Source: a virus
Taxonomy: Duplodnaviria; Caudoviricetes
DNA length: 53,379 nucleotides
Direction: 5' to 3' (one strand)
IMG/VR virus record: IMGVR_UViG_3300046167_000321
Coordinates: 1 to 53,379 of that record
The notes beneath the pieces are model-generated. The model searched no databases and was not told the origin of the DNA. It was given only the letters and a program-made list of their open reading frames with translations. Every line of letters starts with the position of its first letter. The first letter of the stretch is position 1. Positions 780 to 53,203 of this stretch are shown here, piece by piece. Made by a program: the position numbers and the translations under genes.

Positions 780-799
780 TTGGTCATTCTCCTAGTTAG

Positions 800-1481: not shown

Positions 1482-1529
1482 TTGGTCAGTCTCCTAGTTA
1501 AAATTTGAACAGGCCTCCGGCCCTGCCCC

Positions 1530-1991: not shown

Positions 1992-2298
1992 TGGATGCGT
2001 CCCCCTCGTTTTCATGGTTGCACCCTTTGTGCTGGCCCTCAGTATTCCCGCCACCCTTGGCCACAGCATAAGCGAAAAATTCATGCTCGATCAGATCATC
2101 CAGATCTGCGGTTTCACAATTTATCTGAATAGATGGGCCATTCATACAGGCGCTGCTAAACTCAGATGACAGGCAGCACATATTGTGCAGCCCGTAATAG
2201 ATGTCGAGGCGGCTGCCAACACGGTTTAACAGTTCACAGATTTGGTTGTTGCTCAGATTATTGGCCAGTTCGCCAATGTCGATTGTCTCAGTATTCAT
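1984..2298 (-). CDS. Hypothetical early protein
   Basis: 104-aa ORF with RBS GAAGGA and the shared TGACCAAATG leader. Confidence 0.6.
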   Translation of the reverse strand: MNTETIDIGELANNLSNNQICELLNRVGSRLDIYYGLHNMCCLSSEFSSACMNGPSIQINCETADLDDLIEHEFFAYAVAKGGGNTEGQHKGCNHENEGDASNG

Positions 2299-2349
2299 TT
2301 GGTCATTCCTTCAAGTTAGATTTGAGCGGAGCCAATCGGCCCCAGCCCG

Positions 2350-5381: not shown

Positions 5382-6164
5382 ATGAACTATACTAGAAGTG
5401 ACCAAATAAGCATAATCAAGTCTATAACCCTTAGAGAAGGTGATAGTAAGACACTAGACTGTCCTTTCTGCTATGGACGTAAGAAGTTCACAATCAGTAA
5501 GATAGATGGACGTACAATATGGAATTGTTATAGAGCATCCTGCAGAATTAAAGGTGCATATAATACGGGGCGGTCATTAACCGCTATTCAAAACAATCTA
5601 AATGGTACTGTTAAGAGTACGATTAAGAAGACTAATCAAATACCGCCAATATTATCTGGTATAGATAACAACCCTGATGCAGTTGAATATCTGAAGTCTG
5701 TTAACTCCTATGATGCATACAAGCAGGGACTTATAAGAATACAATACTACCCTGCCCGTAACCGTGTTCTATATTTCAACAACGATAACACAGGTGCGGT
5801 AGGAAGATCATTGGATGGAAGTAATCCTAAGTGGATGAGCTTTGGTAATACCGAGGGTGGAATACAAGTAGGTGATTCTAAGACCGCTGTAGTAGTTGAA
5901 GACGTAGCATCAGCCTGTTCAGTAAGTAGAGTTAAGGGTGTGTGTGGCTATGCCTTACTAGGTACAAACATTACAGCACCTATTAAATCTAAGCTAAGAC
6001 ACTTTAGCTGTGTAATAATAATTCTTGACAAAGACGCTAGTTCCAAGGCATTACGGTTAGCGAAGAGCTTACAATCTCATTTAAATGTTAAAGTGAAGCT
6101 CACAAATGAAGACTTAAAATGGTTAAATGTAAAGGAAATTGAGAATACACTATGTACTTTATAA
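5382..6164 (+). CDS. DNA primase (Zn finger + Toprim)
   Basis: CPFC...NCYRASC, VVEDVASA, LDKDA; likely start MNYTRSD. Confidence 0.88.
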   Translation: MNYTRSDQISIIKSITLREGDSKTLDCPFCYGRKKFTISKIDGRTIWNCYRASCRIKGAYNTGRSLTAIQNNLNGTVKSTIKKTNQIPPILSGIDNNPDAVEYLKSVNSYDAYKQGLIRIQYYPARNRVLYFNNDNTGAVGRSLDGSNPKWMSFGNTEGGIQVGDSKTAVVVEDVASACSVSRVKGVCGYALLGTNITAPIKSKLRHFSCVIIILDKDASSKALRLAKSLQSHLNVKVKLTNEDLKWLNVKEIENTLCTL

Positions 6165-6605: not shown

Positions 6606-6660
6606 GATTTGATCCGTGTTACTAGGGACACCTAACAATACTAAAAGGGAGTCTAACTAG

Positions 6661-7881
6661 GTGGACCAATCATTACTAAAGAACCTACTATCGAGCGAAT
6701 TCTACAACGACAACAAGTCTAAATTAAAGCGATCCCTGTTTTCAGATGAGGCGGCAGACCTCTATGGGATACTGTGTGATGCACACGAAAAGTATCAACA
6801 TGACCTTTCAACCAAAGAGCTGATGATCTTGTTTGATCTCAATTACCCTGTGGCTACTCGAGCCGAGAAAGAGGTAATTGAAGACCTGATTGGAAGCATA
6901 CAGACCGCCCCGGATGTTTCTCCTGACGTGGCACATGATGCTATCGAGAACCTGTGGCGCAGAGAGATTGGGCGAGAAATTGCCGACGAAGGCATCAACA
7001 TGACCAATGGTCACTACGAAGCCATGAACAGAGTCCGTAGCCTAATTGAAAGATCTATTGATGGATATCTACCAGATGACTTTGGTGATCCTACCACAGA
7101 TGATCTTGATGAGCTTCTAGCTGAAACAGGTGATGATGCTCGATGGGCGTTTAACATTCCTACATTAAGCAGGAGTGTCTACGGCATTGGTGCTGGTGAG
7201 TTTGGCATTATCTTCGCCACACCTGAAACAGGTAAGACTGCCTTTGCTATCAGCCTGATTGCTGGTCCCGGCGGATTCTGTGAGCAAGGTGCTAAAGTTC
7301 TATACCTCGGCAATGAGGAGATAACAAAGCGGACTAAGCTACGTGCCTATCAAGCGTGGACAGGTATGACCCGTGACAGCATCGTGCAGAACCCTGACGA
7401 AGCCAAGCGTAAGTACACCGCTATTAAAGACAGACTGATAATGAAGGACACCCAAGATTGGGATCTAGATCGTATCGAGTCATACATTGAGAAGATCAAT
7501 CCTGATTTGATCTGTATCGATCAGGCGGACAAGGTTCAGATTGCTGGTCAGTATAATGCAGGTCATGAACGTCTGCGGGAATTGTATAGGCGTTTGCGTG
7601 AGACATCCAAAAGGTTCGAGTGTGGCCTACTGGCAGTATCCCAAGCCAGTGCAGATGCGGATGGTAAGACACGACTGACCTATACCATGATGGAAGGTTC
7701 CAAGATTGGTAAGGCAGCGGAGAGTGATCTTATTTTGGGTCTGGGGCGTCATTCTGGTGAGAATGAAGACAACAAACCAGACAACACCAGATTCATAACG
7801 GTCAGTAAGAACAAGCTATCAGGTTGGCATGGCACAATAGTATGCAGCATCGAGCCTGAGGTATCCCGTTATGTTGCATGA
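6661..7881 (+). CDS. DnaB-like (SF4) replicative helicase
   Basis: Walker A ATPETGKT, YLGNEE, ICIDQADK, VSQAS, SKNK. Confidence 0.92.
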   Translation: MDQSLLKNLLSSEFYNDNKSKLKRSLFSDEAADLYGILCDAHEKYQHDLSTKELMILFDLNYPVATRAEKEVIEDLIGSIQTAPDVSPDVAHDAIENLWRREIGREIADEGINMTNGHYEAMNRVRSLIERSIDGYLPDDFGDPTTDDLDELLAETGDDARWAFNIPTLSRSVYGIGAGEFGIIFATPETGKTAFAISLIAGPGGFCEQGAKVLYLGNEEITKRTKLRAYQAWTGMTRDSIVQNPDEAKRKYTAIKDRLIMKDTQDWDLDRIESYIEKINPDLICIDQADKVQIAGQYNAGHERLRELYRRLRETSKRFECGLLAVSQASADADGKTRLTYTMMEGSKIGKAAESDLILGLGRHSGENEDNKPDNTRFITVSKNKLSGWHGTIVCSIEPEVSRYVA

Positions 7882-10048
7882 TGGATGGTTGGTACTGGAC
7901 CTAGAAACTACAGTAGAGAAGCGTGATAACAAATGGGACAACAGCCCTAAGAACCCTAACAATAAGATTGTATCAGCGCATTACGGGTGGCTTGGTGAAA
8001 CGAGTGTAGAAGACGTTCAGCATGACTTTTACTATCATAATGAACTCACCACCCCTGCTGATCCTAAGAAGCTGCAGGGATACTTAGATAAAGCTAAAGG
8101 TCTAATCTTTCACAATAGTAAGTTCGATGCCTTTTGGTTGATCGAAGCCGGGTTTAGTATCCCAGATATTATATTCTGTACGATGATTGCAGAATATATC
8201 TTAGGCAAAGGGCGTAACACTGAAGTCGTTAAAGATGAGGATGGTAAGGACCAAGTAGTACGCCGGGAGATATCCCTAAAAGCAACAGCACAACGTCATG
8301 ACGTTACTCGCAAGAAGAGTGAGCTAGTCGATGAACTGTTTAAGTCTGGTACGGGCTTTGAGGCCATGCCTATCGAGGTGGTACGGGAATACGCTGAAGC
8401 GGATGTTGTTAGCTGTGGGGAGATATACTTATCTCAACAGGAGATATTCAACACTGATCCTAATAAGCCTTTACTGAACATAGTCCGTCTGATGAATGAG
8501 ATGACTTGGTTCCTTCTCGAGATAGAAGGCAACGGCTGCAAGATCGATATGGATGTTCTTAATCAAGTTGAGAGTGACTTCCGTACAGAGAAGGCAGAAC
8601 TAGAGAAAGCCCTTAACCAAATCGTTACAGAGGTAATGGGCGACACGGTTATAAACCTAAACAGCGGACAAGACATGACCAAGGTTGTGTATTCCCGTCA
8701 GGTATTAGATCGTGAGAAGCACAGGTCTACTTGGAATATAGGTGTGAACTCGAAGGGTAAGCCTTTGATGCCGCCTCGTATGAACCGAAGCCAGTTCAAC
8801 AGATCTGTTCGAGCTACCACACAGAAGGTATACAGAACTATAGCTATGTGCTGCCAGTTGTGCAGCGGTCACGGTACTATACAGAAGTACAAGAAGAATG
8901 GTGATCCTTGGAAGATACGCAGTAAGTGCAGCCTGTGTGAGGGCCGGGGCGCTATCTACGTTCCACAGAGCAAAGTAGCAGGGCTGAAGCTAAACCCTAC
9001 TGTACCCTCTGACGCAAGCATCAATGGTTTTAAGACAGATAAGCTCACTATCGGGCGTCTTATAGATCAGGCTAGGGAAAAGGATAACCTCACTGCTATT
9101 GAGTTCCTGACCAAGATCAAACGCCTCAATGCTATCAACACCTACCTTGATAGTTTTATATCGGGGATACAGACATGGACCAGACCATCAGGCCTACTGC
9201 ATTCTACCTTTAATCAGTGTGTCACTGCTACCGGGCGTCTGTCATCCACTAATCCTAACTTCCAAAACTTACCTAAAGGCAACAAGTTCGAGGTCCGTAG
9301 GGCTATTGTAAGCAGGTTCCCCGGCGGGAAAATCGGAGAAATGGATTTCAGTGGCCTTGAATTTAGAGTCGCAGGGATGCTGTCCCGGGATCAGCAGATC
9401 ATAGATGACGTACTGAATGGCAAGGATGTTCATAAACAAACCGCATCAATCATACTGCAGAAAACAGAAGAAGAGGTGACTAAAAATGAAAGGTCTGAGG
9501 CAAAGGCTTTTACGTTCCAACCATTATATGGCGGAGGCTCAAACGGAAAAGCAAGTCACATCAAAGCCTACTTCGACTCCTATTTCAATATCTACGAAGG
9601 ACTGTCTAGATGGCACAAAAGCCTCGGAGACGAAGTTATCAACCGAGGATATATTCAGACTCCAAGTGGTAGACAGTTTGCGTTCCCCGGAGCAAAACGG
9701 CTTGGGTCTGGACGAGTTACCAACCACACCCAAGTGGTTAACTTCCCCTGCCAGAGCTTTGCAACGGCTGATATCGTACCCCTTTCGTGTATTCGTGCGC
9801 TTAAAAGGTTTCGTGATGATGGTCTTCAATCGAAGCTAATCCTCACAGTACACGATTCTATTGTCGTGGATATACATCCAGATGAAGTTGACGCCGTAGG
9901 TATTGCCCTCGAGTGGTCCATGTCAGGCGTGGATGAAGAACTAAAAGATAGATTCAATTACCAATCAGTCCTACCCCTAGACACCGAGTATTCAGTGGGA
10001 TCAAATTGGATGAATTTAGAAGAGTTAAGTGTTGCTTTAGACACCTAA
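7871..10048 (+). CDS. polA: Family A DNA polymerase with 3'-5' exonuclease and DnaJ-type Zn-finger insert
   Basis: LDLETT, HNSKFD, TATGRLSS..PNFQN, DFSGLEFR, AKAFTFQPLYG, TVHDS; CQLCSGHG...CSLCEGRG. Confidence 0.96.
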   Translation: MLHDGWLVLDLETTVEKRDNKWDNSPKNPNNKIVSAHYGWLGETSVEDVQHDFYYHNELTTPADPKKLQGYLDKAKGLIFHNSKFDAFWLIEAGFSIPDIIFCTMIAEYILGKGRNTEVVKDEDGKDQVVRREISLKATAQRHDVTRKKSELVDELFKSGTGFEAMPIEVVREYAEADVVSCGEIYLSQQEIFNTDPNKPLLNIVRLMNEMTWFLLEIEGNGCKIDMDVLNQVESDFRTEKAELEKALNQIVTEVMGDTVINLNSGQDMTKVVYSRQVLDREKHRSTWNIGVNSKGKPLMPPRMNRSQFNRSVRATTQKVYRTIAMCCQLCSGHGTIQKYKKNGDPWKIRSKCSLCEGRGAIYVPQSKVAGLKLNPTVPSDASINGFKTDKLTIGRLIDQAREKDNLTAIEFLTKIKRLNAINTYLDSFISGIQTWTRPSGLLHSTFNQCVTATGRLSSTNPNFQNLPKGNKFEVRRAIVSRFPGGKIGEMDFSGLEFRVAGMLSRDQQIIDDVLNGKDVHKQTASIILQKTEEEVTKNERSEAKAFTFQPLYGGGSNGKASHIKAYFDSYFNIYEGLSRWHKSLGDEVINRGYIQTPSGRQFAFPGAKRLGSGRVTNHTQVVNFPCQSFATADIVPLSCIRALKRFRDDGLQSKLILTVHDSIVVDIHPDEVDAVGIALEWSMSGVDEELKDRFNYQSVLPLDTEYSVGSNWMNLEELSVALDT

Positions 10049-10060
10049 CCGTAGTATAAC
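10032..10060 (+). promoter_or_regulatory. sigma70-type promoter for SSB operon
   Basis: TTGCTT-17-TATAAC; spacer contains GACACCTAA. Confidence 0.65.
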
Positions 10061-10088
10061 TAAGAACCAAATAATTGAGGAGAGCCGA

Positions 10089-10925
10089 ATGGCCGAACTA
10101 CAAACTACATCAACAATGTCGCTGGCTGAATTACACCAGACATTGGGTATCAATGATAAGCCACAATCAGGCAGTGGCACACGTCTTCCAGAGCTGAAGA
10201 TATCGTCTCAGCGTAAGGATAAAGAGGGCAACGACATCCGTAAATTTGAGGGTCAGTTCTTTCTGAAGAACTACGATCAAGAGGTATATGCTGAAACAGT
10301 ACGAATACGTGTACTATCTCAGCTATTTCAGTGGATCGATTATGATCCAGATGAGAACCGTGTGCGTAATAAGACACTCCTGATTCCTTTTATGAGCCAT
10401 GAAGCTCGTGATATGCAGGGTGGTATTCGATGCGGTAAGCCAACATCTCGTGAGATGAAGAACTGGTCACCTGAACAGAAGTCTAAGTATAAGAGCATTA
10501 CTTTGTTTAGACAGCTTCGGTGCTTAGTTTCATACGAAGGCGTTACTGCCTCTGGAGAGAAGGTTAAGGTAGAAAACGTACCATCAATCATTCTCAACAA
10601 GAACTCATCTTATATGAACTTCGAGGATGAAGTTGTTAAGAAGTTGAATGGCCGTAACTATAGTGATGTGTGGGTAGACCTATCTAGTCAGGAACATCAG
10701 AACGGTAGCGTGACCTACTACACATGGCATTACACACCAGACATTAAGAACCCGGTCCCATTGGATGACAAGACAATGGAAACTATGGTTCATTTTGCTG
10801 GTCTAGTTAAATCTGAAAATGAACGTATCGACAGCTCCTATGAGCGGTCACTGAAGGATCGTGTGATGGATGATGATGCCATCGATGCTCTTGAAGATGA
10901 TCTAGATGCGGATCTGATGGATTGA
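10089..10925 (+). CDS. Putative single-stranded DNA-binding protein
   Basis: Position after polA, acidic C-terminal tail (DDDAIDALEDDLDADLMD). Confidence 0.65.
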   Translation: MAELQTTSTMSLAELHQTLGINDKPQSGSGTRLPELKISSQRKDKEGNDIRKFEGQFFLKNYDQEVYAETVRIRVLSQLFQWIDYDPDENRVRNKTLLIPFMSHEARDMQGGIRCGKPTSREMKNWSPEQKSKYKSITLFRQLRCLVSYEGVTASGEKVKVENVPSIILNKNSSYMNFEDEVVKKLNGRNYSDVWVDLSSQEHQNGSVTYYTWHYTPDIKNPVPLDDKTMETMVHFAGLVKSENERIDSSYERSLKDRVMDDDAIDALEDDLDADLMD

Positions 10926-11782
10926 TATTAGAAGCCAAAATCCACCAAATCATGGAAAGGCTTTCCAACAACGAGTCTGATCAACTTGAGATTAAGAAAG
11001 AGTGGATCGACGAAGCTGTTGAAATGGTCAGGGAAGGGCTTGAAAGACAGCTCTTCCGTGAACAGGAACCTTTCCGGGTACGGATGTCCAACATATCCAA
11101 GCCTACCTGTCAGCTCCATATGGAAAAGCAAGGTAAGCCTAAGTCCAGAATGCCTTACAATCACATTATGCGGATGATGCATGGTGATATGATCGAGGCC
11201 ATCATGCAACTGATACTTCGTATCTCCGGTGCTAACATCACTGGAGGTAAGAATAAGGTAAAGCTGGATGTAGCTGGGACTGAGGTAAGAGGCGAAGACG
11301 ATATCGAGATTGATCATAAGGTCTTTGATACTAAGTCAGCCTCTCCTTGGGCCTTTGGTAACAAGTGGTCAAAGGGCTTTGCTGGATTACAAGAGTCTGA
11401 TGACTTCGGCTATATAGGTCAACTGGTAGGATATTCTGCAGCTCAGAATAAAGAACCGGGCGGATGGATTGTTGTAGATAAGAGTAGTGGTCAGGTCAAA
11501 GTTGTTGAAGCTGATCTAAAGAAGCGTGACATCAAGAAGATCCTCGGGAACATGAGTACCGCAGTGAAATCACTGGATGGTGAATTCAAGCGTTGCTTTG
11601 AGCCTGAAGATGAGTTGTTCCGCCGAAAGCCTACAGGTTCCAAACGGCTATCAGCCACCTGTGGGTTTTGCTCTTTTCTGGGGTCCTGTTGGCCTAATGC
11701 TCAATACCTACCACAGACGGGATCTCAAGCTAAAGAGCCTCGCCACTACTGGTACACAGAGTATGAGGGCAATAAACTTTAA
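10922..11782 (+). CDS. PD-(D/E)XK Cas4-like exonuclease
   Basis: RMSNI..P.CQL, GEDD...FDTKSAS, GYIGQL..Y, CGFCSF...CW. Confidence 0.8.
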   Translation: MILEAKIHQIMERLSNNESDQLEIKKEWIDEAVEMVREGLERQLFREQEPFRVRMSNISKPTCQLHMEKQGKPKSRMPYNHIMRMMHGDMIEAIMQLILRISGANITGGKNKVKLDVAGTEVRGEDDIEIDHKVFDTKSASPWAFGNKWSKGFAGLQESDDFGYIGQLVGYSAAQNKEPGGWIVVDKSSGQVKVVEADLKKRDIKKILGNMSTAVKSLDGEFKRCFEPEDELFRRKPTGSKRLSATCGFCSFLGSCWPNAQYLPQTGSQAKEPRHYWYTEYEGNKL

Positions 11783-12138
11783 TGCCCATCAAGACCTCGA
11801 GCGCCAAGAGCAAAGGACGTAAGCACCAGCAGTGGACACGGGACAGGCTCCTAGAGCTTTTCCCTACGCTCGAAAAGGATGACATCCGATCAACATCAAT
11901 GGGAGCTGGCGGGGAAGATCTACAATTCTCGCCAGCAGCCCGTAAGCAAATACCCATTAGCGTAGAGTGCAAAGCATACAAAGCCTTCGCAATTTACAAG
12001 GTAATGGACCAAGCCGCAGAAAATTCCAAAGAAGGAATAGAGCCTGTGGCGGTCATAAAGGCGGACAGACGAACTCCGTTGGCAGTGGTTGATGCTCAGT
12101 ATTTCTTTAAACTTCTAGCTAATTCGGAGACAAAATGA
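11782..12138 (+). CDS. Holliday junction resolvase-like endonuclease
   Basis: KSKGR..QQW, SMGAGGEDL, SVECK. Confidence 0.75.
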   Translation: MPIKTSSAKSKGRKHQQWTRDRLLELFPTLEKDDIRSTSMGAGGEDLQFSPAARKQIPISVECKAYKAFAIYKVMDQAAENSKEGIEPVAVIKADRRTPLAVVDAQYFFKLLANSETK

Positions 12139-12464
12139 ACCCGGACGAACTGCCTAATAATTCCATGATGTTGCTTGTTCAGATGAATGACGATGGAGAG
12201 ATGTCCATCCTATCTGGTAGTAACCTCGATGAGGACAACGACGAGAAAACCCTAGAGTACCTAAACGATGTGATGACCGGATTGTTCCTGTCTTTCGACA
12301 ACATGATCAACCTGTTTGCATATATCGGTCATATGGCCCGTACCTCAGAGGAGCTGTACGATGAGCTTCAAGGACAAGAGGCACACTTCGAGCCAGATGA
12401 AGAACTCCTGAAAGCCATTAGGGATAGCAAGGTTATCCCCTTCGACAAGAAGAAGCTCAACTGA
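12135..12464 (+). CDS. Hypothetical acidic protein
   Basis: Translationally coupled ORF ending VIPFDKKKLN. Confidence 0.7.
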   Translation: MNPDELPNNSMMLLVQMNDDGEMSILSGSNLDEDNDEKTLEYLNDVMTGLFLSFDNMINLFAYIGHMARTSEELYDELQGQEAHFEPDEELLKAIRDSKVIPFDKKKLN

Positions 12465-12745
12465 TGGCAAAGTGGAAAGAAGTACCGCTTGCGGCGGAAG
12501 CATGTGATCGAACTAAGATAGCATCAGACGGACTGTCTACGTCCTACTATGAGCTTCCAACTCACGCCACAGAGCTACGTCACTTGATCAGTCATAAGGG
12601 CATGAGCAAGAGCCGGGGAGATATCTTCAAGGCTTGCTACCGCCTCGGTGAAAAGCAGGGCACAGACACGCTCTACGATCTCAACAAGATGAAGTTCTTC
12701 ATTGAGGATTTAATAGAAATGCATAAGCGTGGAGAGCTTTTATGA
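12464..12745 (+). CDS. DUF3310-like protein
   Basis: SDG.STSYY.LP...GDIFKACYRLGEK...YDLNK..FF. Confidence 0.6.
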   Translation: MAKWKEVPLAAEACDRTKIASDGLSTSYYELPTHATELRHLISHKGMSKSRGDIFKACYRLGEKQGTDTLYDLNKMKFFIEDLIEMHKRGELL

Positions 12746-13068
12746 ACATGCAAGATTACCAAACCCAAGCATCTAAAACCGCAATATACAATGATGCGGA
12801 TGTAATAATTTACCCGGCTCTAGGCCTATTCAGTGAAGCTGGCGAAGTAGCTGGAAAAGTGAAGAAGGTCCTGCGGGATAAGAATGGCCATTTTGATCCC
12901 ATTGAGAGGGACAAAATAGCTGATGAGGTAGGTGATGTTCTTTGGTACATCGCTGCCCTTTGCACCGACTTAGGTGTGGGTATGGAAACCATAGCCCAAA
13001 ACAATCTCAACAAACTTAATAGCAGGATGTCACGTAATGTCATCCAAGGTTCAGGCGATAATCGATAG
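12742..13068 (+). CDS. mazG: MazG-like NTP pyrophosphohydrolase
   Basis: LGL..EAGEVA.KVKK, DEVGDVLWY, N..KL.SR. Confidence 0.88.
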   Translation: MNMQDYQTQASKTAIYNDADVIIYPALGLFSEAGEVAGKVKKVLRDKNGHFDPIERDKIADEVGDVLWYIAALCTDLGVGMETIAQNNLNKLNSRMSRNVIQGSGDNR

Positions 13069-13076
13069 GGAAAATA

Positions 13077-14762
13077 ATGAGCAGTTTTAAATCAAACCTA
13101 AATCCAGCATTCAGATCAAAGTTTAGCGAGGATATCTTTAACCATAAGTATAAGCATGAAGGTGCTGAAACTTGGGATGCATTGGCTAAAACACTAATTG
13201 ATGATGTATGTGGTGATTTTTTACCACAAGAGGAGTTAGACCAGCTCACACAATATGTACGTGAGATGAAGTTTATTCCGGGTGGACGTTACTTGTATTA
13301 TGCAGGGCGTCCAAACAAGTTCTTCAACAACTGTTACCTTCTGAAGGCAGAAGAAGATACTCGTGAGGATTGGGCTAACTTATCATGGAAAGCTGAGAGC
13401 GCACTAATGACAGGTGGAGGCATTGGTGTAGACTATTCTGTATATCGTGCCAGTGGATCTCCTATCGCTAAGACAGGTGGTCAGGCCAGTGGGCCTATCC
13501 CTAAGATGAACATGCTCAATGAGATTGGCCGCCGTGTAATGCAAGGTGGATCACGCCGCAGTGCTATCTATGCATCCTTGAACTGGAAGCATGGGGATAT
13601 CCATGAGTTTTTGGGGGCCAAGGATTGGGCAAATATGCCTGTAGGTCAAACAGGAAAGACATTGTGGGACATTAAGCAGGATGACTTTAACTTCCCTGCC
13701 CCTCTAGACATGACCAACATCAGTGTAAATTACGATACTGAATGGCTGCTGAATTATTATAAGACAGGTGACGTAGGCGAAGTGTTCATGAAGAACGTGC
13801 GTCAGGCTATGCAATCTGCCGAGCCGGGATTCTCCTTTAACTTCTTTGATAAAGAGAACGACACATTACGCAACGCCTGTACTGAGGTTACATCAGCGGA
13901 TGATAGTGATGTCTGCAACCTTGGGTCTATTAACATGGGCCGAGTAGAAGACATCGATGAGATGGCAGATATTGTGGCGTTAGGTACTAAGTTCCTTATC
14001 TGTGGGACAATGAAGGCCAAACTCCCTTACGACAAAGTGTATGAAACCCGTGAGAAGAACCGTCGGTTGGGTCTTGGTCTGATGGGTATGCATGAATGGT
14101 TAATCCAGAGAGGGTCTAAATATGAAGTTACTCCAGAACTGCATTCGTGGTTACAAGTATATAAAGGTGTCAGTGATAAAGTATCGAGAGAAACAGCAGA
14201 TGAGTTCTCAATATCACGACCCGTGGCCAACCGTGCCATTGCACCCACTGGAAGTATTGGCATATTGGCTGGCACCTCGACTGGCGTTGAGCCTATATTT
14301 GCTGTTGCTTATAAGCGCCGTTACTTAAAGGGCAATACTAGATGGGTATACCAATACGTTGTTGATAGTGCTGCACAAGAGCTTATTGACAGATATGGCG
14401 CACAACCTGATAATGTCGAAAGTGCTTTGGATCTGGCGTCTGATTATGAACGGCGCATGGCATTCCAAGCTGACGTACAGGATTACGTTGATATGTCGAT
14501 CTCCTCGACAATTAACCTTCCTGCATTCGGGAGCAAGTTGAACAATGAAAATACGGTTGAAACCTTCGCTAATACGTTGGCTAAGTATGCACCAAGACTT
14601 CGTGGCTTCACTTGCTATCCTGATGGTAGTCGTGGTGGTCAGCCTCTCACTTCCGTACCATATCACGAAGCCGTAGAGAAGCTAGGCGAAGAGTTCGACG
14701 AACATATCGAAACTCATGACATCTGTGACATCTCTGGAACCGGGGGTAGTTGCGGGGTTTGA
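13077..14762 (+). CDS. nrdJ: Class II (B12-dependent) ribonucleotide reductase, compact form
   Basis: PGGRYL, NNC, RNACTE, VCNLGS, IAPTG, ISSTINLP; no beta-subunit gene nearby. Confidence 0.88.
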   Translation: MSSFKSNLNPAFRSKFSEDIFNHKYKHEGAETWDALAKTLIDDVCGDFLPQEELDQLTQYVREMKFIPGGRYLYYAGRPNKFFNNCYLLKAEEDTREDWANLSWKAESALMTGGGIGVDYSVYRASGSPIAKTGGQASGPIPKMNMLNEIGRRVMQGGSRRSAIYASLNWKHGDIHEFLGAKDWANMPVGQTGKTLWDIKQDDFNFPAPLDMTNISVNYDTEWLLNYYKTGDVGEVFMKNVRQAMQSAEPGFSFNFFDKENDTLRNACTEVTSADDSDVCNLGSINMGRVEDIDEMADIVALGTKFLICGTMKAKLPYDKVYETREKNRRLGLGLMGMHEWLIQRGSKYEVTPELHSWLQVYKGVSDKVSRETADEFSISRPVANRAIAPTGSIGILAGTSTGVEPIFAVAYKRRYLKGNTRWVYQYVVDSAAQELIDRYGAQPDNVESALDLASDYERRMAFQADVQDYVDMSISSTINLPAFGSKLNNENTVETFANTLAKYAPRLRGFTCYPDGSRGGQPLTSVPYHEAVEKLGEEFDEHIETHDICDISGTGGSCGV

Positions 14763-14953
14763 GCAAGACAGGCATGATCATAGCATATAGCCGGGGAAAG
14801 GATGCCTTCCGAGAGGGCATCTTCTCCTCACCCTATGCCCCAGAAACAATCAAACACAAGGAATGGCAGAGAGGCTTCGATGAGGCCTTCTGTAAGCATA
14901 GAGAGGTTAATGATGTACAAGGAATTCAACTACCAGATTCACTCGAGGTATGA
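14750..14953 (+). CDS. Ribosome modulation factor (Rmf)-like small protein
   Basis: AYSRGKDAFREG...PY......EWQRGFDEA matches the Rmf pattern G..A...G....PY.....W..GW. Confidence 0.55.
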   Translation: MRGLSKTGMIIAYSRGKDAFREGIFSSPYAPETIKHKEWQRGFDEAFCKHREVNDVQGIQLPDSLEV

Positions 14954-15335
14954 TGAGGCTGCTAGATCTAAAGCAAAGATGTTTTGGAAGGATAATGGTT
15001 ATCAGTGTGACGATAACGAAGACATATATGGAGTTGATCTTGTTGTTGAAGGCAAGGGACGTAAGTTTAACTGTGAAGTAGAGGTTAAACAGACGTGGCA
15101 TGGTTTAAAGTTCCACTATGACACCTTACATATACCAGTACGCAAGGCTAAGTTCCTTACTGACCCAACCACCTTCATGGTATTCAACGCTGGCCTACAT
15201 CGAGTAGCTGTAGTTGGGCGAAAAGCTGTACGGGAAGCCCCAAAAGTAGAAGTTCCTAACCGTGAGATAGCGTTTGGTGAACGATTTTTCGATGTGCCTG
15301 TATCTCAGGCCAAATTCTTCACGATAGGAGCATAA
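14910..15335 (+). CDS. PD-(D/E)XK family nuclease
   Basis: YGVDL...CEVEVK; RBS GAGAGG before ATG 14910. Confidence 0.65.
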   Translation: MMYKEFNYQIHSRYDEAARSKAKMFWKDNGYQCDDNEDIYGVDLVVEGKGRKFNCEVEVKQTWHGLKFHYDTLHIPVRKAKFLTDPTTFMVFNAGLHRVAVVGRKAVREAPKVEVPNREIAFGERFFDVPVSQAKFFTIGA

Positions 15336-15336
15336 T

Positions 15337-15582
15337 ATGACTGAAGAAACAAACCAAGTGACGAAGGCACTGAATGATGCCATTGAGGCAAACCTTCAAG
15401 CAGTAGTAGTATCCGGTGTGGATGCTAATGGACAGATGTTTATGACCAGCTCTAATTCATCCCTACCTTTCATGCACTGGACACTAAATCGATCAGTGTT
15501 TGAGTTGGGATTATTTGAGAAAAACAATGCCGACAACGCAAAAAAAGACCCGGAGTCTGTTGACCCCGAGCCTAAAAAATAA
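15337..15582 (+). CDS. Hypothetical protein
   Basis: RBS AGGAG, 81 aa. Confidence 0.7.
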   Translation: MTEETNQVTKALNDAIEANLQAVVVSGVDANGQMFMTSSNSSLPFMHWTLNRSVFELGLFEKNNADNAKKDPESVDPEPKK

Positions 15583-15588
15583 TACAAC
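15560..15588 (+). promoter_or_regulatory. sigma70-type promoter with no downstream ORF (sRNA promoter)
   Basis: TTGACC-17-TACAAC; next element is a 5' hairpin, then a terminator ~70 nt later. Confidence 0.7.
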
Positions 15589-15593
15589 ACTTG

Positions 15594-15659
15594 AGAATGG
15601 TTTGGTCACCATTCTAGTTAGATAAGAATAAACCCTCAGTTAAATGCTGGGGGTTTTTT
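15594..15659 (+). ncRNA. Candidate trans-acting antisense sRNA (~66 nt)
   Basis: Hairpin agaatggt-TTGGTC-accattct, single-stranded agttagataag, terminator; TTTGGTCA-N5-CTAGTTAG is complementary to five translation starts. Confidence 0.72.
15630..15659 (+). terminator. Intrinsic terminator between convergent blocks (possibly bidirectional)
   Basis: aaaccctcag-ttaaatg-ctgggggttt-ttt. Confidence 0.8.
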
Positions 15660-15661
15660 CG

Positions 15662-18600
15662 TTACTGAGGTATTGCTTTCTCTGTTTGTTCATCAACGCT
15701 TTCAGCACCAAGATAAGCGCCCCGTAATGCAAGCGGTGTCTGATCTGATACAAAGCTGGCCATTCTACCAAATAGATTCATTGCTTGTTTGTCCTTACCA
15801 TCAGCGACTAGCTGTAGCATTCGGTCAAACTCATCAGGACGGGCTACTAGGATATCCATAGTTTCCTGCGCCACATTCTGAATGTCATCTATCATTGGCT
15901 TTAGTACAGCCTTGCTTATGTTTCTAGCAATAGTGGCCTTAGTATTAAGGACGCCATAACGAAGAGTAATAAGCCTATCTGTGAGTTTAGTTAACTCCGT
16001 ATCATACGCTGTGTTAGAACCAAATGCTTCTCCTTTAATGGATCTAGATCCGGTAGAGATGTCCTGAAGTTCTAACATATGTAAGAACTGTGTCTTACGT
16101 TCAGGATTATTCTTAAATATGATATCCAAGCTATTTCTAAATGGGTTAGCAGGATTATTCAGCAGGTCTTGTATTTGTCTACTGGATACATCGTTAACTG
16201 CCCCGGTAGTGTTTCCTTCCGTAAGTGCTATTTTTCTAGACAGGAATACTTTATTACGCAGGAACTCAAGGTATGCCACCTGTATGCCAGATGTAATTAG
16301 ATCACCATCTGGTGATTGAGCCGCCCTCTTCATCAACTCATCTATCGTATTACCTTGACCTGCAACCTTGCCAAATATCTCATTGAATGCAGCCTGAGGT
16401 TCCTGTGTGATCTTAGGTGTTTTTCCCGGTATAAGGTCATCGATGAACTTTGCAGCGGCGTCTGTACGTGCTGAAGCTATAAAGTCAGAATGCTCTTTGG
16501 TAAGTTTTGCCGCCACTGTTTCAGCATCTGTTAAACCTGCTTCCAAGTTCTTCAGATCTCCTACTACAACACGGAATCTTTCCACAACATCAGGTGCTAC
16601 ATTTTCTAAAACAGCTAACTGTGGCTCTAACGCATTGATCATATCCACAGCTCTAGGAGCTTGTCCTGCCTCTAGGTTACGGGCCATGAAGTTCATGGAC
16701 ATACCAAGGTAGGCCTGTGCCATTTCAGCGGTTACGTTTTCATCAGTGCCTGATTGTAGTGCTGCTATGAATGCTTTCTGGTAATCATCTACGCCCTCCA
16801 TAGAGGAACTTAGAGCTACCTTACCTGCTGCATATGCATCAGCCATGCCGGGAGTAACTCCCGTTACTGTAGCAACCTGTCCTTCTTTCCTAAGTGCTAT
16901 CTTCGCTTTGTCCTCAAAAGCTCTAAGAGGTTCTGTGGTACGGAAGGTAGTGTCATGCTTACGATATAGGTCTAGCGCCTCGGTAAATGCAGGATCTCCT
17001 ACATTGTCAGCAATCTGATCTATACCTCGAACAAAGTTTCGTAGCTGTTCACCCTGCTGAGATGTAAGTGGATTGTTATATAATGCGTCTGCACGGAGTG
17101 CCAGTTGGCCACGTAAGTCTGTAAAGACTTCGGCCATAGTTACACCCTGCATCTCAAGACGTGCCAACATTTCTTCTACAGACTCATACACCAGATCACC
17201 ATTAGGGGCTTGAGCCACCCGAGGTGTCATCTTTTCAATCAGCCTGTTGATAGGATCTGCTACTGTCCCGGTCTGCGTAATTGTTTTTAAGAAGTTAGGC
17301 CACTCTTCCGCTGGCACGAATGATGTTGTTAATTTGTGAAATTCTTCTACAGGCAGTTCAACATCCGTGGGTAAGTTATCCCAAGCAGATTTGTATGTGC
17401 TAAAAGACTTCTTCCATGCTTCGTACAACTGAGGCCCACTCATACTGTTGAGCGCCCTGCGTTCAGCGGCATTAGAACCTAGCTGATTGTTTCGTGCGGC
17501 ATCCATAAAGAATCCCAGAACATCATTGTTATTCTGGAATTGATCTAATTCTGAGCTAATAGCCTCTACTGTATTTCCTGCATTGGCAGCCTTAAATGAT
17601 TTGTCTGTTGCTTCCGTAACAATATCACCAGCCAAACCGCTGGCGGCTGCGTCTACTGCATCAGCCCCGCCTAATCCTTCGGCGGTATTTGTCATTGCAT
17701 TCTGAAAACCCTCAACTACTGCAGCGTCTGCAGTTCTCACGGCCTGACTCTGCAATCTACTACGATGCAAGTCGATCATCTTTAGGGACATTGTGTTTGC
17801 TAAGTCATCTGCAAACTTCTCGTAGGCTTCTTCTCCCATTAATGATTTCTGCCATACATATGCACGATCAACGTAATCACGTACGCCTTGACGTACGGCG
17901 TCCACAGAAGTCCGAGGTATGGTAGTATTCCCTAATAATGGGAAGAATGACTCTGAGTTCTCACGGATAACCTCTCCAAGTATAGAAGCACGTTCAGCAA
18001 ATATCTCAGCAGGTACACCAGCAAGATTTGGATCTAGCTCATTTAATACTATTGCGCCTACGTCACGCTCAATACCCGCTTTAGTTAAACCTGAGGTACC
18101 TTTAAATAATGCCTTGATGGGTCTTTTAGCAAGTCCAGCAATTTTGCCTAAGGTCATTAGTCCGCCAGAGAATGCTACGTTGTCTGCGAAGTTAGCAATG
18201 TTACGATTTTCTTCGGCATCAAAGCCCAGCGCCTCGGCAATATTATCACCGAATAAAGGCTTGGCTTCCTGTGGTGTAGTGGCTGTAGTACCAATGTTTG
18301 CGCCTGTACCTAGTATAAACGTCTTTGAGAATATACGGGCAGCATCAATCATCTCTTCAGGCTTCTTCTTGCCTACTTTGGACCATGCCTGTGCTACATA
18401 CCGAGCCATTTTAGGAGATAGGTTGTATGCTTTCTCCAGCTTACTAGCTAAACCTACGCCGCCTACAGAACCAATAAGCATAGAAATAACTTCTTGGCCG
18501 ATAGCATCATAGTCGTTTGTTGGTGGTACTGTAGGGAAGTTCTCTTTAACGTAATCCGTTTCTGGATCTGTTCCTATTAATCCTCCAGTAAGCTCGCCAA

Positions 18601-19165
18601 TCTTATCTGTGATGCCTTCGCCTACTCGGGCAATACCTTTTATAGCCTGTGCTCCGCCACCCGCAATAGTGTTAATTAATTTGGAGTTTGGTGCATTTGG
18701 GTTTGGTACAATGAATGTTTGCTTATTACCCTCGGCATCTTTGGATACCTGAGTACGCATAGCCTCGCCACCTAGACCTTCAATAACGGCTTGCTTACCA
18801 TCGCCCTCAACTGCGGTACCTGTCTGCTGGTAGATCTTCTCGTTACTATCATCAACCGCCTGAATGAACTTATCACGCTTCTCGGAAGGATCTAAGTTCG
18901 CAAACGAAGGATCAGTCATCAATGCTTTATAGATAGGATGCTCAGTATCAATACCTGTGTAGCCCATCCTATTTAAGAAGGAGGGCCTATCATAGTAATC
19001 TGATATGCTTAATGGTGGTTTTTCGTCAGGCTCTGCTTGGTTGCTATCAAAGATTGAAGTGAAATCTTCAATAGTCATATCATTAGACTCGGAGCCTTCC
19101 TCATCAGAAACCGACTGCCCTTGGTTAAACAGGGCTTCAAAGTCTACTACTTGTTCTTCGGCCAT
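15662..19165 (-). CDS. Large internal virion / ejection protein (putative)
   Basis: 1167 aa, helical, last gene of the structural operon as in podoviruses. Confidence 0.6.
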   Translation of the reverse strand: MAEEQVVDFEALFNQGQSVSDEEGSESNDMTIEDFTSIFDSNQAEPDEKPPLSISDYYDRPSFLNRMGYTGIDTEHPIYKALMTDPSFANLDPSEKRDKFIQAVDDSNEKIYQQTGTAVEGDGKQAVIEGLGGEAMRTQVSKDAEGNKQTFIVPNPNAPNSKLINTIAGGGAQAIKGIARVGEGITDKIGELTGGLIGTDPETDYVKENFPTVPPTNDYDAIGQEVISMLIGSVGGVGLASKLEKAYNLSPKMARYVAQAWSKVGKKKPEEMIDAARIFSKTFILGTGANIGTTATTPQEAKPLFGDNIAEALGFDAEENRNIANFADNVAFSGGLMTLGKIAGLAKRPIKALFKGTSGLTKAGIERDVGAIVLNELDPNLAGVPAEIFAERASILGEVIRENSESFFPLLGNTTIPRTSVDAVRQGVRDYVDRAYVWQKSLMGEEAYEKFADDLANTMSLKMIDLHRSRLQSQAVRTADAAVVEGFQNAMTNTAEGLGGADAVDAAASGLAGDIVTEATDKSFKAANAGNTVEAISSELDQFQNNNDVLGFFMDAARNNQLGSNAAERRALNSMSGPQLYEAWKKSFSTYKSAWDNLPTDVELPVEEFHKLTTSFVPAEEWPNFLKTITQTGTVADPINRLIEKMTPRVAQAPNGDLVYESVEEMLARLEMQGVTMAEVFTDLRGQLALRADALYNNPLTSQQGEQLRNFVRGIDQIADNVGDPAFTEALDLYRKHDTTFRTTEPLRAFEDKAKIALRKEGQVATVTGVTPGMADAYAAGKVALSSSMEGVDDYQKAFIAALQSGTDENVTAEMAQAYLGMSMNFMARNLEAGQAPRAVDMINALEPQLAVLENVAPDVVERFRVVVGDLKNLEAGLTDAETVAAKLTKEHSDFIASARTDAAAKFIDDLIPGKTPKITQEPQAAFNEIFGKVAGQGNTIDELMKRAAQSPDGDLITSGIQVAYLEFLRNKVFLSRKIALTEGNTTGAVNDVSSRQIQDLLNNPANPFRNSLDIIFKNNPERKTQFLHMLELQDISTGSRSIKGEAFGSNTAYDTELTKLTDRLITLRYGVLNTKATIARNISKAVLKPMIDDIQNVAQETMDILVARPDEFDRMLQLVADGKDKQAMNLFGRMASFVSDQTPLALRGAYLGAESVDEQTEKAIPQ

Positions 19166-19167
19166 GA

Positions 19168-22044
19168 TTACTCCTGTTCAGAATCTGCTGTGGGAAATAG
19201 GAAGGGCATCTCTTGCTTAATGTATTCGATTTCGTAACCCATAGAAGTTAAGGACAACAACGCCTTATCTATTGTACTCTGACTAGGTTTTTCCCCTACA
19301 GCAGACTTGTAATTTGTAATGGTCTGAGCATTAAACTTAGCCAAACCTTCACCCGGTTGAATTAATTCAACTGCATCTGTTGTTACAACTTCGGGAGCTG
19401 CATTAACATTTTGTACTTCAATCTTTACTGTACCTTGTGCCCAACCATACGTGTCAGGTGTATTGGTTAGAACCTTACGGATGTTAGCAAAATACTCTTC
19501 GGCTGTAGCAAGTTCGTTACCAAACTCTGCACCATAGCTCCTTGCTTCCTTAATGAGCGTTTGATCTCTAAGAGTGACAGCAGCCCTACTTGCTTCACCC
19601 ATACGATCCCTAGCAAACTTCTGAAGACCTGCAGCAAATGTTTCGATATTGTTGCTGGTAAGAAGTGAGTTTCGGATGTTTTTGTAGTCTTGGTTAGAGA
19701 AGCCATTGCCTGTCTGTCCCAGAGCTTTACCTGCAGCAAAGATGTACTGGATAGATGCACCCATGAACTGTTGATAAACAGAAGCTGTTTCCCTATTCAT
19801 CACGCCGCTAGAAACAGCATTGTCTAGGTAATCAGTGATCTGATTAACCAACGTACCTTCATTGATATTATCATCTCCAGAAGCACTACCTACTATATCA
19901 AGCATAGCTGATAGCTCGTTACGTCCAGATACAAACAGGGCGTTTACTTTCCCTGCAGAAGTCAGAACGTATGGGTTTCTCCTTGCTAATTCTTCTAGCT
20001 TATATCCCATGACAGCTACGTTGGTAGCCGCACCCATTAACTTGGTTTGATCTGAAAGTAAATTAGATGCGCCACGGACTGATGCCGCTCTACTCTTATC
20101 TAGTTCTTCTGTCTGAATGTTCTTAGGATTTTCTATTACTTCACCTGTAGCAATGTTGGTATAAACTGTCTCGCCTTTATCATTTACACTCTGTCTTGCT
20201 GATACAATCAGACCCGGTTCAGTAGTAACCGCATATGTCTGGTCATTACCCCCAGCCTCGGAGGCTATGATAGAAGACATCTTAACTGGGTATATGTTTT
20301 TCAGATAGTTATTTGCTTCTGCCACTATTTTTGGATCACTAGATGTGAGAGCTAAAGTAGCTTCTGCGTGTTCAGCACTCAAGTTAGCTCTTGTAAGTGT
20401 GCTTGATTTAGACCCATCCAAGTTTGCTTTGGCTGCCGCAATCATTTGTTGCTGCTTTTCAGGTGTAGCCTTCTTCCATGCATCTTGCTCCATTAGAACT
20501 GATACAGATAGCTCTGCAAAGCTGGTAGGAACCTTCTCATCATCAGTCATGTTATAGATGTCTACAAGTGCTTTACCTTCTGTAGATTGCCACAACGCCC
20601 ATGCAGCGTCTTTATCTTCTTGTGTCTCATATATTTTATCATTAGCATATATTTCCTTACGGGCATTAAATGCTATGGTCTTTAGGCTGTTTTCATCAAA
20701 CACAAAGTCTTTTTGCTCTTTAGCTAATTCTAGATCTTTTAGAACCTTAATTCTTGAGTTAAGTGTATCTCTATACACTTTAGATGCAGTCATCTTTTTA
20801 CCCTTTAGCTCTGCTAAGATAGCCTCGCCTTCTTGAGAGGTGGAAAAGGTAAGAGATGGAAGTGCTGTATTTAGTATATCTGTCTGATAATCGATTGCAC
20901 GACCTATCATGGTTTTTAGAATTACAGGGGATACGTTAGCATACTTTGGATTATTCTTAGCATTAGTGATAAACTCATTAAGCTGGTTTTGATTCATTCC
21001 GCCTATATCAGGAAATACCTGTAGATCTTTTTGAAGTGCCTCTAGCTGAGTACGCATAGCCACGACTTCAGGATCTTGCTGATTTTTCTCCAGATTCAGT
21101 GCGGCCAGTGCAGCCAAAACCTTTTCCGAGTCAGTTACCTTACTTATATCGATGCGCTCTGATAGCGTCTTAGTGGTGTCTTTAGGGTCTTTAGGAATAA
21201 TCATCAAAGTACCAACAGCATCACCTACGGCATCCAGAGGGGCTACCCCGCTGTTGCTTGCTGCATCTACTTCAGTTGTGATGCTAGGTGACGTATTATC
21301 ACTTGCAGTAAGCCCGGAAGCAGAGGTAACATTACGCCCTGTCATTTCTTTCCATCTATCTACTCGTGCATTAACTCGATTAAGCCTTTGATCCGCCTGT
21401 CTTTGGCGTACACGATCAATCCAGCTATCACCTATCCCGGCCTCTTGGTATGGCTCGAATGATAGATCTTCATCCGTATCTACGTTTTTAGTAGATAGGC
21501 TGGACAGTAACAGTTCGCTGCTATTGTCTTCAGACTGATTGGAACTCAGAACAGTTTCTGTTTGAGTATCTAAAGCTGATGTTTCCTCGTTATTAACCTC
21601 AGATTCTGGCTTTACTTTAGGTTCTGTTGCTTCCAGAGGGTTAGTAATCGTACCATCCGGGGCCTGAAACCTAATTCTGTTTTCTTTAATACCTAATTGT
21701 AGGTCACTTACAATTTGATTTGCAGTCATCCCACCCACAAGGTTACGATAAATCGTAGCTTCTATTCCGGGTAAATTAGGATAGTTCGCAGCCAGAGATG
21801 CGGCCTGAGATCTATAATTTGTAGTCTTAGCGGCTGCTTTAGCTTTAGCTTTTTCACGGTCCTGTATATCTGAAACAGCTAACTTAAACAGATCATCATC
21901 TGCCTTGTTACGGGCAGCACGAGCTGCAGTAAATGAGGATGAAAACGAGTCAGCAAATCCAGTGGCAAAGCCTACTAGGGCGTCACTAGGGCCATCATCA
22001 TAATACTTACGAAAATCACCAAACTTATATTCACTGTAGCTCAT
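19168..22044 (-). CDS. Large internal virion / ejection protein (putative)
   Basis: 958 aa, N-terminal GFATGFADSF helix, position. Confidence 0.6.
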   Translation of the reverse strand: MSYSEYKFGDFRKYYDDGPSDALVGFATGFADSFSSSFTAARAARNKADDDLFKLAVSDIQDREKAKAKAAAKTTNYRSQAASLAANYPNLPGIEATIYRNLVGGMTANQIVSDLQLGIKENRIRFQAPDGTITNPLEATEPKVKPESEVNNEETSALDTQTETVLSSNQSEDNSSELLLSSLSTKNVDTDEDLSFEPYQEAGIGDSWIDRVRQRQADQRLNRVNARVDRWKEMTGRNVTSASGLTASDNTSPSITTEVDAASNSGVAPLDAVGDAVGTLMIIPKDPKDTTKTLSERIDISKVTDSEKVLAALAALNLEKNQQDPEVVAMRTQLEALQKDLQVFPDIGGMNQNQLNEFITNAKNNPKYANVSPVILKTMIGRAIDYQTDILNTALPSLTFSTSQEGEAILAELKGKKMTASKVYRDTLNSRIKVLKDLELAKEQKDFVFDENSLKTIAFNARKEIYANDKIYETQEDKDAAWALWQSTEGKALVDIYNMTDDEKVPTSFAELSVSVLMEQDAWKKATPEKQQQMIAAAKANLDGSKSSTLTRANLSAEHAEATLALTSSDPKIVAEANNYLKNIYPVKMSSIIASEAGGNDQTYAVTTEPGLIVSARQSVNDKGETVYTNIATGEVIENPKNIQTEELDKSRAASVRGASNLLSDQTKLMGAATNVAVMGYKLEELARRNPYVLTSAGKVNALFVSGRNELSAMLDIVGSASGDDNINEGTLVNQITDYLDNAVSSGVMNRETASVYQQFMGASIQYIFAAGKALGQTGNGFSNQDYKNIRNSLLTSNNIETFAAGLQKFARDRMGEASRAAVTLRDQTLIKEARSYGAEFGNELATAEEYFANIRKVLTNTPDTYGWAQGTVKIEVQNVNAAPEVVTTDAVELIQPGEGLAKFNAQTITNYKSAVGEKPSQSTIDKALLSLTSMGYEIEYIKQEMPFLFPTADSEQE

Positions 22045-53112: not shown

Positions 53113-53133
53113 TTTGGTCAGTCTCCTAGTTAG

Positions 53134-53202: not shown

Positions 53203-53203
53203 T

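Follow-up and report, generated by a model that had tools for sequence, protein, structure and literature searches.

A candidate antisense small RNA gene of an HMO-2011-type roseophage with complementarity to several translation starts

The C4 RNA of phages P1 and P7 (immI) contributes to lysogeny control. C4 is a phage small RNA (sRNA) of ~70 nucleotides (nt) in which two exposed segments bracket a ribosome-binding site and block translation; it is excised by RNase P from the transcript of the single operon that it controls (icd-ant). In phage T4, one product, RegA, recognises a related sequence at many early starts and shuts them off jointly. Small phage antisense RNAs can also be cis-encoded opposite a single target, as with sar of P22, which blocks translation of ant, and OOP of lambda, which triggers RNase III decay of cII; both affect the lysis–lysogeny decision, in the account given by PMC12197685. 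The same account describes VpdS of Vibrio phage VP882, a trans-acting, Hfq-bound sRNA of a temperate phage that promotes replication, competes with host small RNAs and alters phage and host mRNA levels. Here we analyse a stretch of viral DNA of 53,379 bp (the window), a whole virus record (IMG/VR IMGVR_UViG_3300046167_000321; completeness estimate 99%), and within it a putative sRNA gene at ~15594–15659 on the plus strand. This gene probably encodes a stand-alone sRNA that acts in trans, by antisense pairing, to block the translation of a set of phage genes.

By analogy, C4 appears to be the closest known system in working principle. The window sRNA would differ from it in having its own promoter and terminator, in lying 9–15 kb from its targets and in addressing five to six leaders on both strands, and it has no similarity to C4 in sequence or model. 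Unlike sar and OOP, it would be trans-encoded, with partial complementarity to several targets. VpdS belongs to another host clade and phage type, and the available excerpt of PMC12197685 describes for it no leader cassette shared by several phage genes. RegA is a protein, whereas the recogniser proposed for the window is an RNA.

The locus lies in the 79 bases that separate the convergent ends of an 81-amino-acid (aa) open reading frame (ORF) on the plus strand and a 1167-aa ORF on the minus strand. Its features are as follows.

15560–15588, plus strand: promoter-like element TTGACC-17-TACAAC, with the −35 at 15560–15565 and the −10 at 15583–15588
15594–15659, plus strand: predicted sRNA of ~66 nt, its ends placed from the promoter and the terminator
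15594–15600 with 15609–15615, plus strand: seed hairpin, stem AGAATGG/CCATTCT, with loop TTTGGTCA at 15601–15608
15614–15622, plus strand: single-stranded tail CTAGTTAGA, complementary to the leader sequence (T)CTAACTAG
15630–15656, plus strand: stem of an intrinsic terminator, 11 bp with one U·G pair, followed by T6 to 15659
15337–15582, plus strand: the 81-aa ORF, end of the plus-strand replication module

A sequence-only reading of the window had named this promoter, hairpin, tail and terminator, and all of them are present where it placed them. The predicted sRNA folds at −28.7 kcal/mol (z −5.6). RNAfold adds one U-A pair to the seed hairpin, giving a stem of 7–8 bp and leaving UUGGUC in the loop. 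The parts exposed for pairing are the hairpin loop UUUGGUCA and the free tail CUAGUUAGA, and loop TTTGGTCA is complementary to the TGACCAAA that lies immediately 5′ of target start codons. The terminator has its U·G pair and a proper U tract on the plus strand only. The same reading had stated that no ORF lies inside the element. This needs a small correction, since two mechanically called ORFs, 15500–15625 (plus) and 15511–15612 (minus), overlap it; they also overlap the 81-aa ORF, whose final codons contain the −35, and there is no other coding capacity. The sRNA has a U6 tail and an A/U-rich AGAUAAGAAUAAA, which would suit an Hfq-dependent sRNA but do not establish one. No Rfam 15 model, the phage C4-type antisense RNA included, matched at 15560–15660, either at gathering score or at E up to 5. 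Judged from sequence, a promoter-like element of its own and a Rho-independent terminator without coding capacity would place the locus among trans-encoded base-pairing sRNAs.

The sequence complementary to the sRNA is a two-part leader motif, consisting of CTAACTAG, the Shine–Dalgarno sequence (SD) and TGACCAAA directly before the start codon. We scored the sRNA against 62 predicted start regions, taking as binding score the dimer energy minus both monomer folds. Start codons of the 62 genes followed the longest-ORF rule, except where annotated relatives or the reading of the leader pointed elsewhere (primase). The sites are listed below with their scores and ranks.

780–799, minus strand: target 1, DUF932 leader CTAACTAG-GAGAA-TGACCAA, then ATG at 779; −17.1 kcal/mol, rank 1 of 62
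1481–1501, minus strand: target 2, leader of a weak helix-turn-helix (HTH) gene (205 aa), TTAACTAG-GAGAC-TGACCAA, then ATG; −13.2 kcal/mol, rank 4 of 62
2298–2319, minus strand: target 3, ORF104 leader CTAACTTG-AAGGAA-TGACCAA, spacer 6, then ATG; −14.3 kcal/mol, rank 2 of 62
53113–53133, minus strand: target 4, DUF2958 leader CTAACTAG-GAGAC-TGACCAAA, then ATG; −13.4 kcal/mol, rank 3 of 62
6652–6669, plus strand: target 5, helicase start TCTAACTAG-GTG-GACCAA, with GTG the likely start codon; −11.3 kcal/mol, rank 5 of 62
5383–5406, plus strand: weaker sixth site, primase start ATGAACTATACTAG-AAG-TGACCAAA; −7.6 kcal/mol, rank 7 of 62

The five target starts occupy ranks 1–5 (−17.1 to −11.3 kcal/mol); the best of the remaining starts reaches −7.8 kcal/mol, and the median lies at −2.0 kcal/mol. 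When the letters of loop and tail were shuffled 60 times, the number of starts at or below −11 kcal/mol averaged 0.53 and never exceeded 3, against 5 observed. The leaders of DUF932, the HTH gene and DUF2958, the variant at 2298–2319 and the helicase start are all as that reading described them. The motif has mRNA sense at all targets and touches or overlaps their start codons: it flanks the SD and reaches the ATG in the four early genes and spans the GTG in the helicase. The pattern CTAACTAG-N3-8-GACCAA occurs four times in the window, at 799–780 (minus), 6653–6669 (plus), 15621–15602 (minus) and 53133–53114 (minus), with none expected from 100 shuffles. Each of the window's four exact CTAACTAG octamers is part of this two-part motif, and TGACCAAA occurs nine times against 2.2 expected. 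The HTH leader TTAACTAG matches CTAACTAG at seven of eight positions, its C-to-T change retaining a G·U pair with the sRNA. The primase-start site is also found in the related phage CRP-212 and is absent from CRP-3 and CRP-235. For a two-part site, an exact k-mer complement search gave too much noise, and the energy scans took its place.

The spacers between the motif halves measure 3, 5, 5, 5 and 6 nt, and the halves have no dyad. A DNA operator would be marked by fixed half-site spacing or symmetry and by a promoter position, and the leader motif shows none of these. Two of the leaders follow ribozymes, which are listed here with a further minus-strand element.

798–864, minus strand: type II hammerhead immediately preceding the DUF932 leader, between the HTH gene and DUF932; 37.7 bits with RF02276 (gathering score 37; E 0.00038)
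53132–53203, minus strand: another type II hammerhead, immediately preceding the DUF2958 leader, between DUF932 and DUF2958; 34.8 bits with RF02276, short of the gathering score (37)
15539–15573, minus strand: terminator-like hairpin followed by T7, in the 3′ end of the 81-aa ORF; pairing kept by synonymous changes in CRP-212 and locus L024

The hammerhead at 864–798 contains CUGAUGA, GAAA and the GUC cleavage triplet and qualifies as Hammerhead_II. The copy at 53203–53132, though sub-threshold, is probably real, given its intact core and the compensatory changes that preserve its pseudoknot of loop I with the 3′ tail, where both partners differ from those of the first copy. Since the DUF932 and DUF2958 leaders begin right after the hammerheads, they are internal to a polycistronic RNA and do not lie at promoters. 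Hammerhead cores also precede leaders in CRP-212, CRP-3 and record G004. A comparable arrangement occurs in a prophage region of Agrobacterium tumefaciens, where multiple hammerheads flank ardA and cut the polycistronic RNA (PMC3088659). The likeness is that of hammerheads, type II or other, between small early or anti-restriction-type genes; however, the part of PMC3088659 available describes no sRNA complementary to the leaders that follow the ribozymes.

To compare the locus across phages, relatives were found through the neighbouring 81-aa protein, a search that does not presuppose the motif and that gave 24 loci. A hairpin and terminator stand just 3′ of the ORF stop in 23 of the 24, and the remaining locus is cut 63 nt past the match. 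The closest cultured relatives of the window phage, the Roseobacter phages CRP-212, CRP-3 and CRP-235, also carry the hairpin–terminator unit behind their homologue of the ORF. In a close group (protein identity of 91% or higher, together with CRP-3 at 49% and CRP-235 at 33%) the loop is TTTGGTCA, and in a distant group (~50% identity) the loops are of the kind TTTTAGCTAG or TTTTGTAG, the terminator is longer and there is an inner loop CTAACCA. A terminator is present in every relative, with differing sequence. Matches at L004, L005, L008 and L018 were set aside as chance matches within a coding region of an unrelated phage.

Stem pairing is maintained by covariation in both groups. In the close group with CRP-3 (eight relatives), 96.4% of stem cells are paired and four of seven pairs changed on both sides; none of 500 shuffles was as high, and slid controls gave 41–57% paired. 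In the distant group, 93.8% of cells are paired and six of 18 pairs changed on both sides, again with 0/500 shuffles as high. Several stem cells are G·U pairs that would be A·C on the minus strand, so the structure belongs to a plus-strand RNA. While the stems vary, the letters of loop and tail are constant within lineages.

Two further features of the distant group concern the 3′ part of the unit. In L026–L040 (for example L028:7000–7051), the terminator encloses a small inner hairpin whose loop CTAACCA is invariant in nine of nine and whose 4-bp stem covaries (L036); no site complementary to this inner loop was found in the leaders of record G005. At most of the L026–L040 loci, a tRNA-like sequence lies directly 3′ of the terminator.

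The promoter is conserved as well. Across 16 of 16 aligned relatives, neither TTGAC nor the T-A within the −10 varies, and their spacing is equal. The −10 lies beyond the ORF stop codon in the window, L019, L025, L024, L007 and L026. In CRP-3 the promoter reads TTGACC-17-TATAAC, with the ORF stop inside the −35; in CRP-235 it reads TTGACC-18-TATAAT and is entirely intergenic; in G005 it reads TTGACA-17-TAATAT. With the −10 beyond the stop and the CRP-235 promoter intergenic, coding constraint does not explain this conservation. The window promoter itself is weak: its −10, TACAAC, has no T at position 6 and for that reason is missing from the output of a promoter scan.

The −10 being weak, the sRNA could alternatively derive from the replication-operon mRNA, as its 3′ end. 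The element would then act only in cis, as a protective hairpin and terminator, and the likeness to the leaders would be a relic of an old inverted duplication with no trans function. The element does follow directly on the last plus-strand operon gene, and read-through would include it. However, loop and tail letters are fixed within lineages where stems change, and promoter spacing is invariant in the 16 relatives, also outside the ORF. The leaders, 9–15 kb away, also bear on this account.

Seed and leader sequences change together between lineages: CUAGUUAG goes with CTAACTAG/GG, CAAGUUAG with CTAACTTG in CRP-3, CAAGUUUAG with CTAAACTT in CRP-235 and UUUUAGCUAGUGAA with UUCACUAGCUAAAA in the distant group. 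The lineages are listed individually below.

Window: tail CTAGTTAG; leaders CTAACTAG (three), TTAACTAG (with a G·U) and CTAACTTG
CRP-212: window tail plus AAT (AGAAT); three of four early leaders have ATTCT and read ATTCTAACTGG, the G giving G·U
G004: tail extended by TTGA (AGTTGA); TCAACTAACTGG or near variants (TCAACT) in four of four leaders
CRP-3: tail CAAGTTAG; four of five motif leaders (the DUF932-like gp57, gp56, gp55 and the helicase) have CTAACTTG, and gp60 has CTAACTTA
CRP-235: tail CAAGTTTAG; leaders CTAAACTTA and AAACTTG, with a matching one-base insertion
L024: loop and tail both changed; the helicase start keeps 8 + 6 complementary bases with different letters
G005 (distant group): loop and 3′ arm TTTTAGCTAGTGAA; complementarity without mismatch over 14 nt in two early leaders, including that of DUF932
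G006 (distant group): TTTGTAGTG; leaders with (C)ACTACAAA, matches of 8–9 nt, with C:G where G005 has G:C
G008 (distant group): weaker; 10 nt in the orfA leader and 6–7 nt in the DUF932 leader, by eye

In CRP-235, the 3′ arm of the hairpin also matches the SD region. Leader substitutions mostly preserve G·U pairing with the sRNA, as with CTAACTGG in three CRP-212 and three G004 leaders and TTAACTAG in the window. In an energy matrix, close-group RNAs score −18 to −25 kcal/mol on close-group leaders and −13 to −16 kcal/mol on those of G005, while the G005 RNA scores −24.9 kcal/mol on its own leaders and −11 to −13 kcal/mol on others. The loci L027, L035, L036 and L039 taken alone gave no start-region matches because their early regions lie outside the 20-kb loci; whole records resolved the question for G005 and G006. 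An energy scan of G008, a record 54% complete, gave no leader match, and G009 is 35% complete, its early region not being in the record. A match at the end of the G006 record was rejected as chance, since it lies within a tail-fibre-like gene and a terminal inverted duplicate.

An old duplication remnant would not keep pace with such change, and the distant leaders of CRP-3, CRP-235, L024 and G005 versus G006 differ in step with their seeds. We therefore regard a purely cis-acting 3′ end as very unlikely. The locus shows the accessible conserved seed, complementary to start regions and with compensatory change in relatives, that is characteristic of trans-encoded base-pairing sRNAs, though this is not proof of pairing. 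Gene anatomy, plus-strand RNA structure, complementarity and the joint change of seed and leaders are all established by sequence and its comparison among relatives. The idea of a stand-alone RNA gene that pairs with several start leaders is in this way supported by the conserved unit, by stem covariation and by the joint change in CRP-3, CRP-235, G004, G005 and G006; covariation of sRNA and leaders, which the sequence-only reading had proposed as a check, is found in several lineages.

The sRNA locus is an inverted copy of the leader motif in double-stranded DNA, and concerted change alone therefore cannot separate RNA–RNA pairing from a shared binding protein. On the latter account the motif would be a protein site, either for a RegA-like translational repressor on the leader RNAs or for a DNA-binding regulator; the copy at 15602–15621 would be a further site, or a decoy on the late minus-strand transcript, and the plus-strand RNA would have no trans role. 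All motif copies, the inverted one included, change in concert between lineages, as co-evolution with one protein would give, and the minus-strand terminator-like hairpin at 15573–15539 would put the sense copy in the 3′ end of a late transcript. Four lines of evidence nevertheless favour RNA pairing. First, the motif at the sRNA locus sits in a covarying plus-strand hairpin with strand-specific G·U pairs, between a conserved plus-strand promoter and terminator. Second, the spacing of the halves varies from 3 to 6 nt in the window, and there is no dyad symmetry. Third, leader substitutions mostly retain G·U pairing with the sRNA. Fourth, the leaders stand at a fixed distance from start codons rather than promoters, and two sites lie directly behind hammerheads, inside transcripts, which argues in particular against a DNA operator at a promoter. 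The earlier preference for RNA pairing over an operator, based on the strand sense of the copies and the variable spacer, is supported by these G·U pairs and ribozymes as well. No repressor or RNA-binding family was found among the 27 distinct window ORFs scanned (Pfam, PHROGs) apart from a sub-threshold HTH_23; this is weak evidence because most of the 27 match no family. Overall, a protein site seems to us an improbable explanation.

Several other observations weigh against an antisense sRNA acting on these starts. In a raw duplex scan of every 40-nt window, six starts fall within the ~15 top distinct sites and ~8 GC-rich non-start sites score equally; the scan corrected for unfolding separates the target starts from these sites. 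The leader motif may also be conserved for a reason of its own, for example translation efficiency. The motif is absent from the helicase and primase starts of CRP-235. In a matrix of longest complementary runs, own leaders come top in four of seven rows, with one tie and two exceptions. The window RNA scores 11.2 on CRP-212 leaders and 10.2 on its own, and the G008 RNA reaches 11.0 on G005 leaders against 10.0 on its own; the G005 RNA scores 13.0 on G008 leaders. Contigs from RNA libraries (a close relative; one of four libraries, region 10000–20000) cover 15225–15624 and 15633–15851, but these are assembled contigs that possibly include DNA and are uninformative on ends, strand and level.

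On the preferred reading, the sRNA would be transcribed from its own sigma-70-type promoter and end at the intrinsic terminator. Loop UUUGGUCA and tail CUAGUUAGA would clamp both leader halves around the SD up to the start codon. This pairing would cover roughly −22 to −1 and keep 30S subunits off, and the duplex would possibly be exposed to RNase III. ORF104, the HTH gene, DUF932, DUF2958 and the helicase, and more weakly the primase, would be shut off together. This could take place as an early or replication shut-off, after transcription of the replication module, or as silencing in the prophage. Production of the sRNA, repression rather than activation, and the timing of action are in this scheme proposals drawn from the sequence. 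Minus-strand structural transcripts that reach 15573–15539 would run across the sRNA gene, so that the two convergent units overlap there, and would carry the exact complement of the sRNA, which suggests that they could titrate it.

Pairing could also occur without repression. The sRNA might stabilise or activate the ribozyme-cleaved early mRNAs, or host mRNAs might be its main targets, with the phage leaders as competitors or sponges. Two of the targets are 5′-OH hammerhead products whose stability may need special control, and phage sRNAs that act on host mRNAs are described in the available portion of PMC12197685. In G005 the pairing stretch lies at −35 to −22, 5′ of the SD, and a block of initiation is less certain there, a further point against general repression. 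In the window, however, the duplex lies on both sides of the SD, reaches up to the start codon in four leaders and overlaps the helicase start, which is the classic geometry of a translational block. We consider this alternative, in either form, unlikely. The overall interpretation of the sequence-only reading, a multi-target repressor for lysogeny, immunity or early shut-off, is partly supported, and its underlying observation is confirmed.

The window phage is a temperate, marine HMO-2011-type roseophage. CRP-212 is assigned to the HMO-2011-type group in PMC9038755, and CRP-212, CRP-3 and CRP-235 are HMO-2011-type podoviruses that share the host strain FZCC0040 and have different sRNA seeds. 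The plus strand carries integrase, thymidylate synthase, primase, helicase, polymerase and reductase genes and ends with the 81-aa ORF; the names primase, helicase, polymerase and reductase were taken from annotated relatives. The minus strand opens with the small early genes ORF104, the weak-HTH gene and DUF932, passes to DUF2958 across the record ends and continues via structural genes to the 1167-aa ORF, with its stop at 15662. The gene names used by the sequence-only reading hold, with family matches for DUF932 (E 1.6e-6) and DUF2958 (9e-42) and a DnaB-like helicase; the 205-aa HTH gene has only a weak match (HTH_23, under the Pfam cut-off). The DUF932 frame (window 1–779 and 53331–53379, minus strand) is open past the record start, and abutting the ends adds 16 codons for a total of 275 aa. 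The linear record was thus apparently cut inside the DUF932 gene, as in a circularly permuted or circular assembly.

Other structured elements were seen near these genes. Between the integrase and the early operon, at ~2960–2838 (minus), lies a second candidate sRNA. Its promoter-like element reads GGGACA-16-TAAAAT, the sequence CCTCCC occurs as the loop of a hairpin and once more outside it, and there are also a small hairpin and a T6 terminator. Its Rfam match, to anti-hemB, is weak and sub-threshold (20.5 bits, with 49.5 required). The layout recurs in CRP-212 (L002 ~340–235, minus), where the first stem differs. In the distant group, a Hammerhead_II search found none in five records. The matching leaders there are preceded by a conserved GC-rich hairpin with a GUGGUG-type loop (G005 16600–16560 and 15650–15610; G006 20610–20575 and 19620–19585; all minus strand).

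A role in lysogeny has circumstantial pointers: an integrase in seven of seven sRNA-bearing genomes examined (five of five by search, CRP-3 and CRP-235 by annotation), the lack of a repressor family in the 27 scanned ORFs and the different seeds of phages that infect the same host. It is conceivable, though rather doubtful, that the sRNA is the immunity determinant of temperate HMO-2011-type roseophages. In such a case a prophage would keep its replication genes (helicase and primase) and first early genes (DUF932, DUF2958 and others) untranslated without a CI-type protein, and would do likewise to superinfecting relatives. Seed and leader variants would form immunity groups, and late minus-strand read-through would titrate the sRNA after induction. 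The groups on the one host strain would tentatively be CUAGUUAG (window and CRP-212), CAAGUUAG (CRP-3) and CAAGUUUAG (CRP-235). A search of reference genomes for prophage copies with the close-group core pattern gave 0 matches. A looser distant-group pattern gave six matches in unrelated bacteria that look like chance.

HMO-2011-type phages are reported to be one of the dominant marine virus groups (PMC9038755), and the main text of that paper nowhere uses sRNA, small RNA, ribozyme or non-coding. What appears new in the locus described here is a phage sRNA with a multi-gene, phage-internal regulon that would act through a shared leader cassette in five to six genes, some of them released by hammerheads. 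Such a compact post-transcriptional regulon is not among the phage sRNAs in the accessible part of PMC12197685, which are cis-antisense or host-directed. CRP-212, CRP-3 and CRP-235, all growing on FZCC0040, are natural seed and leader variants and offer ready-made compensatory mutants. If the sRNA did prove to be an immunity factor, it would explain how these integrase-bearing phages without a recognisable repressor maintain lysogeny.

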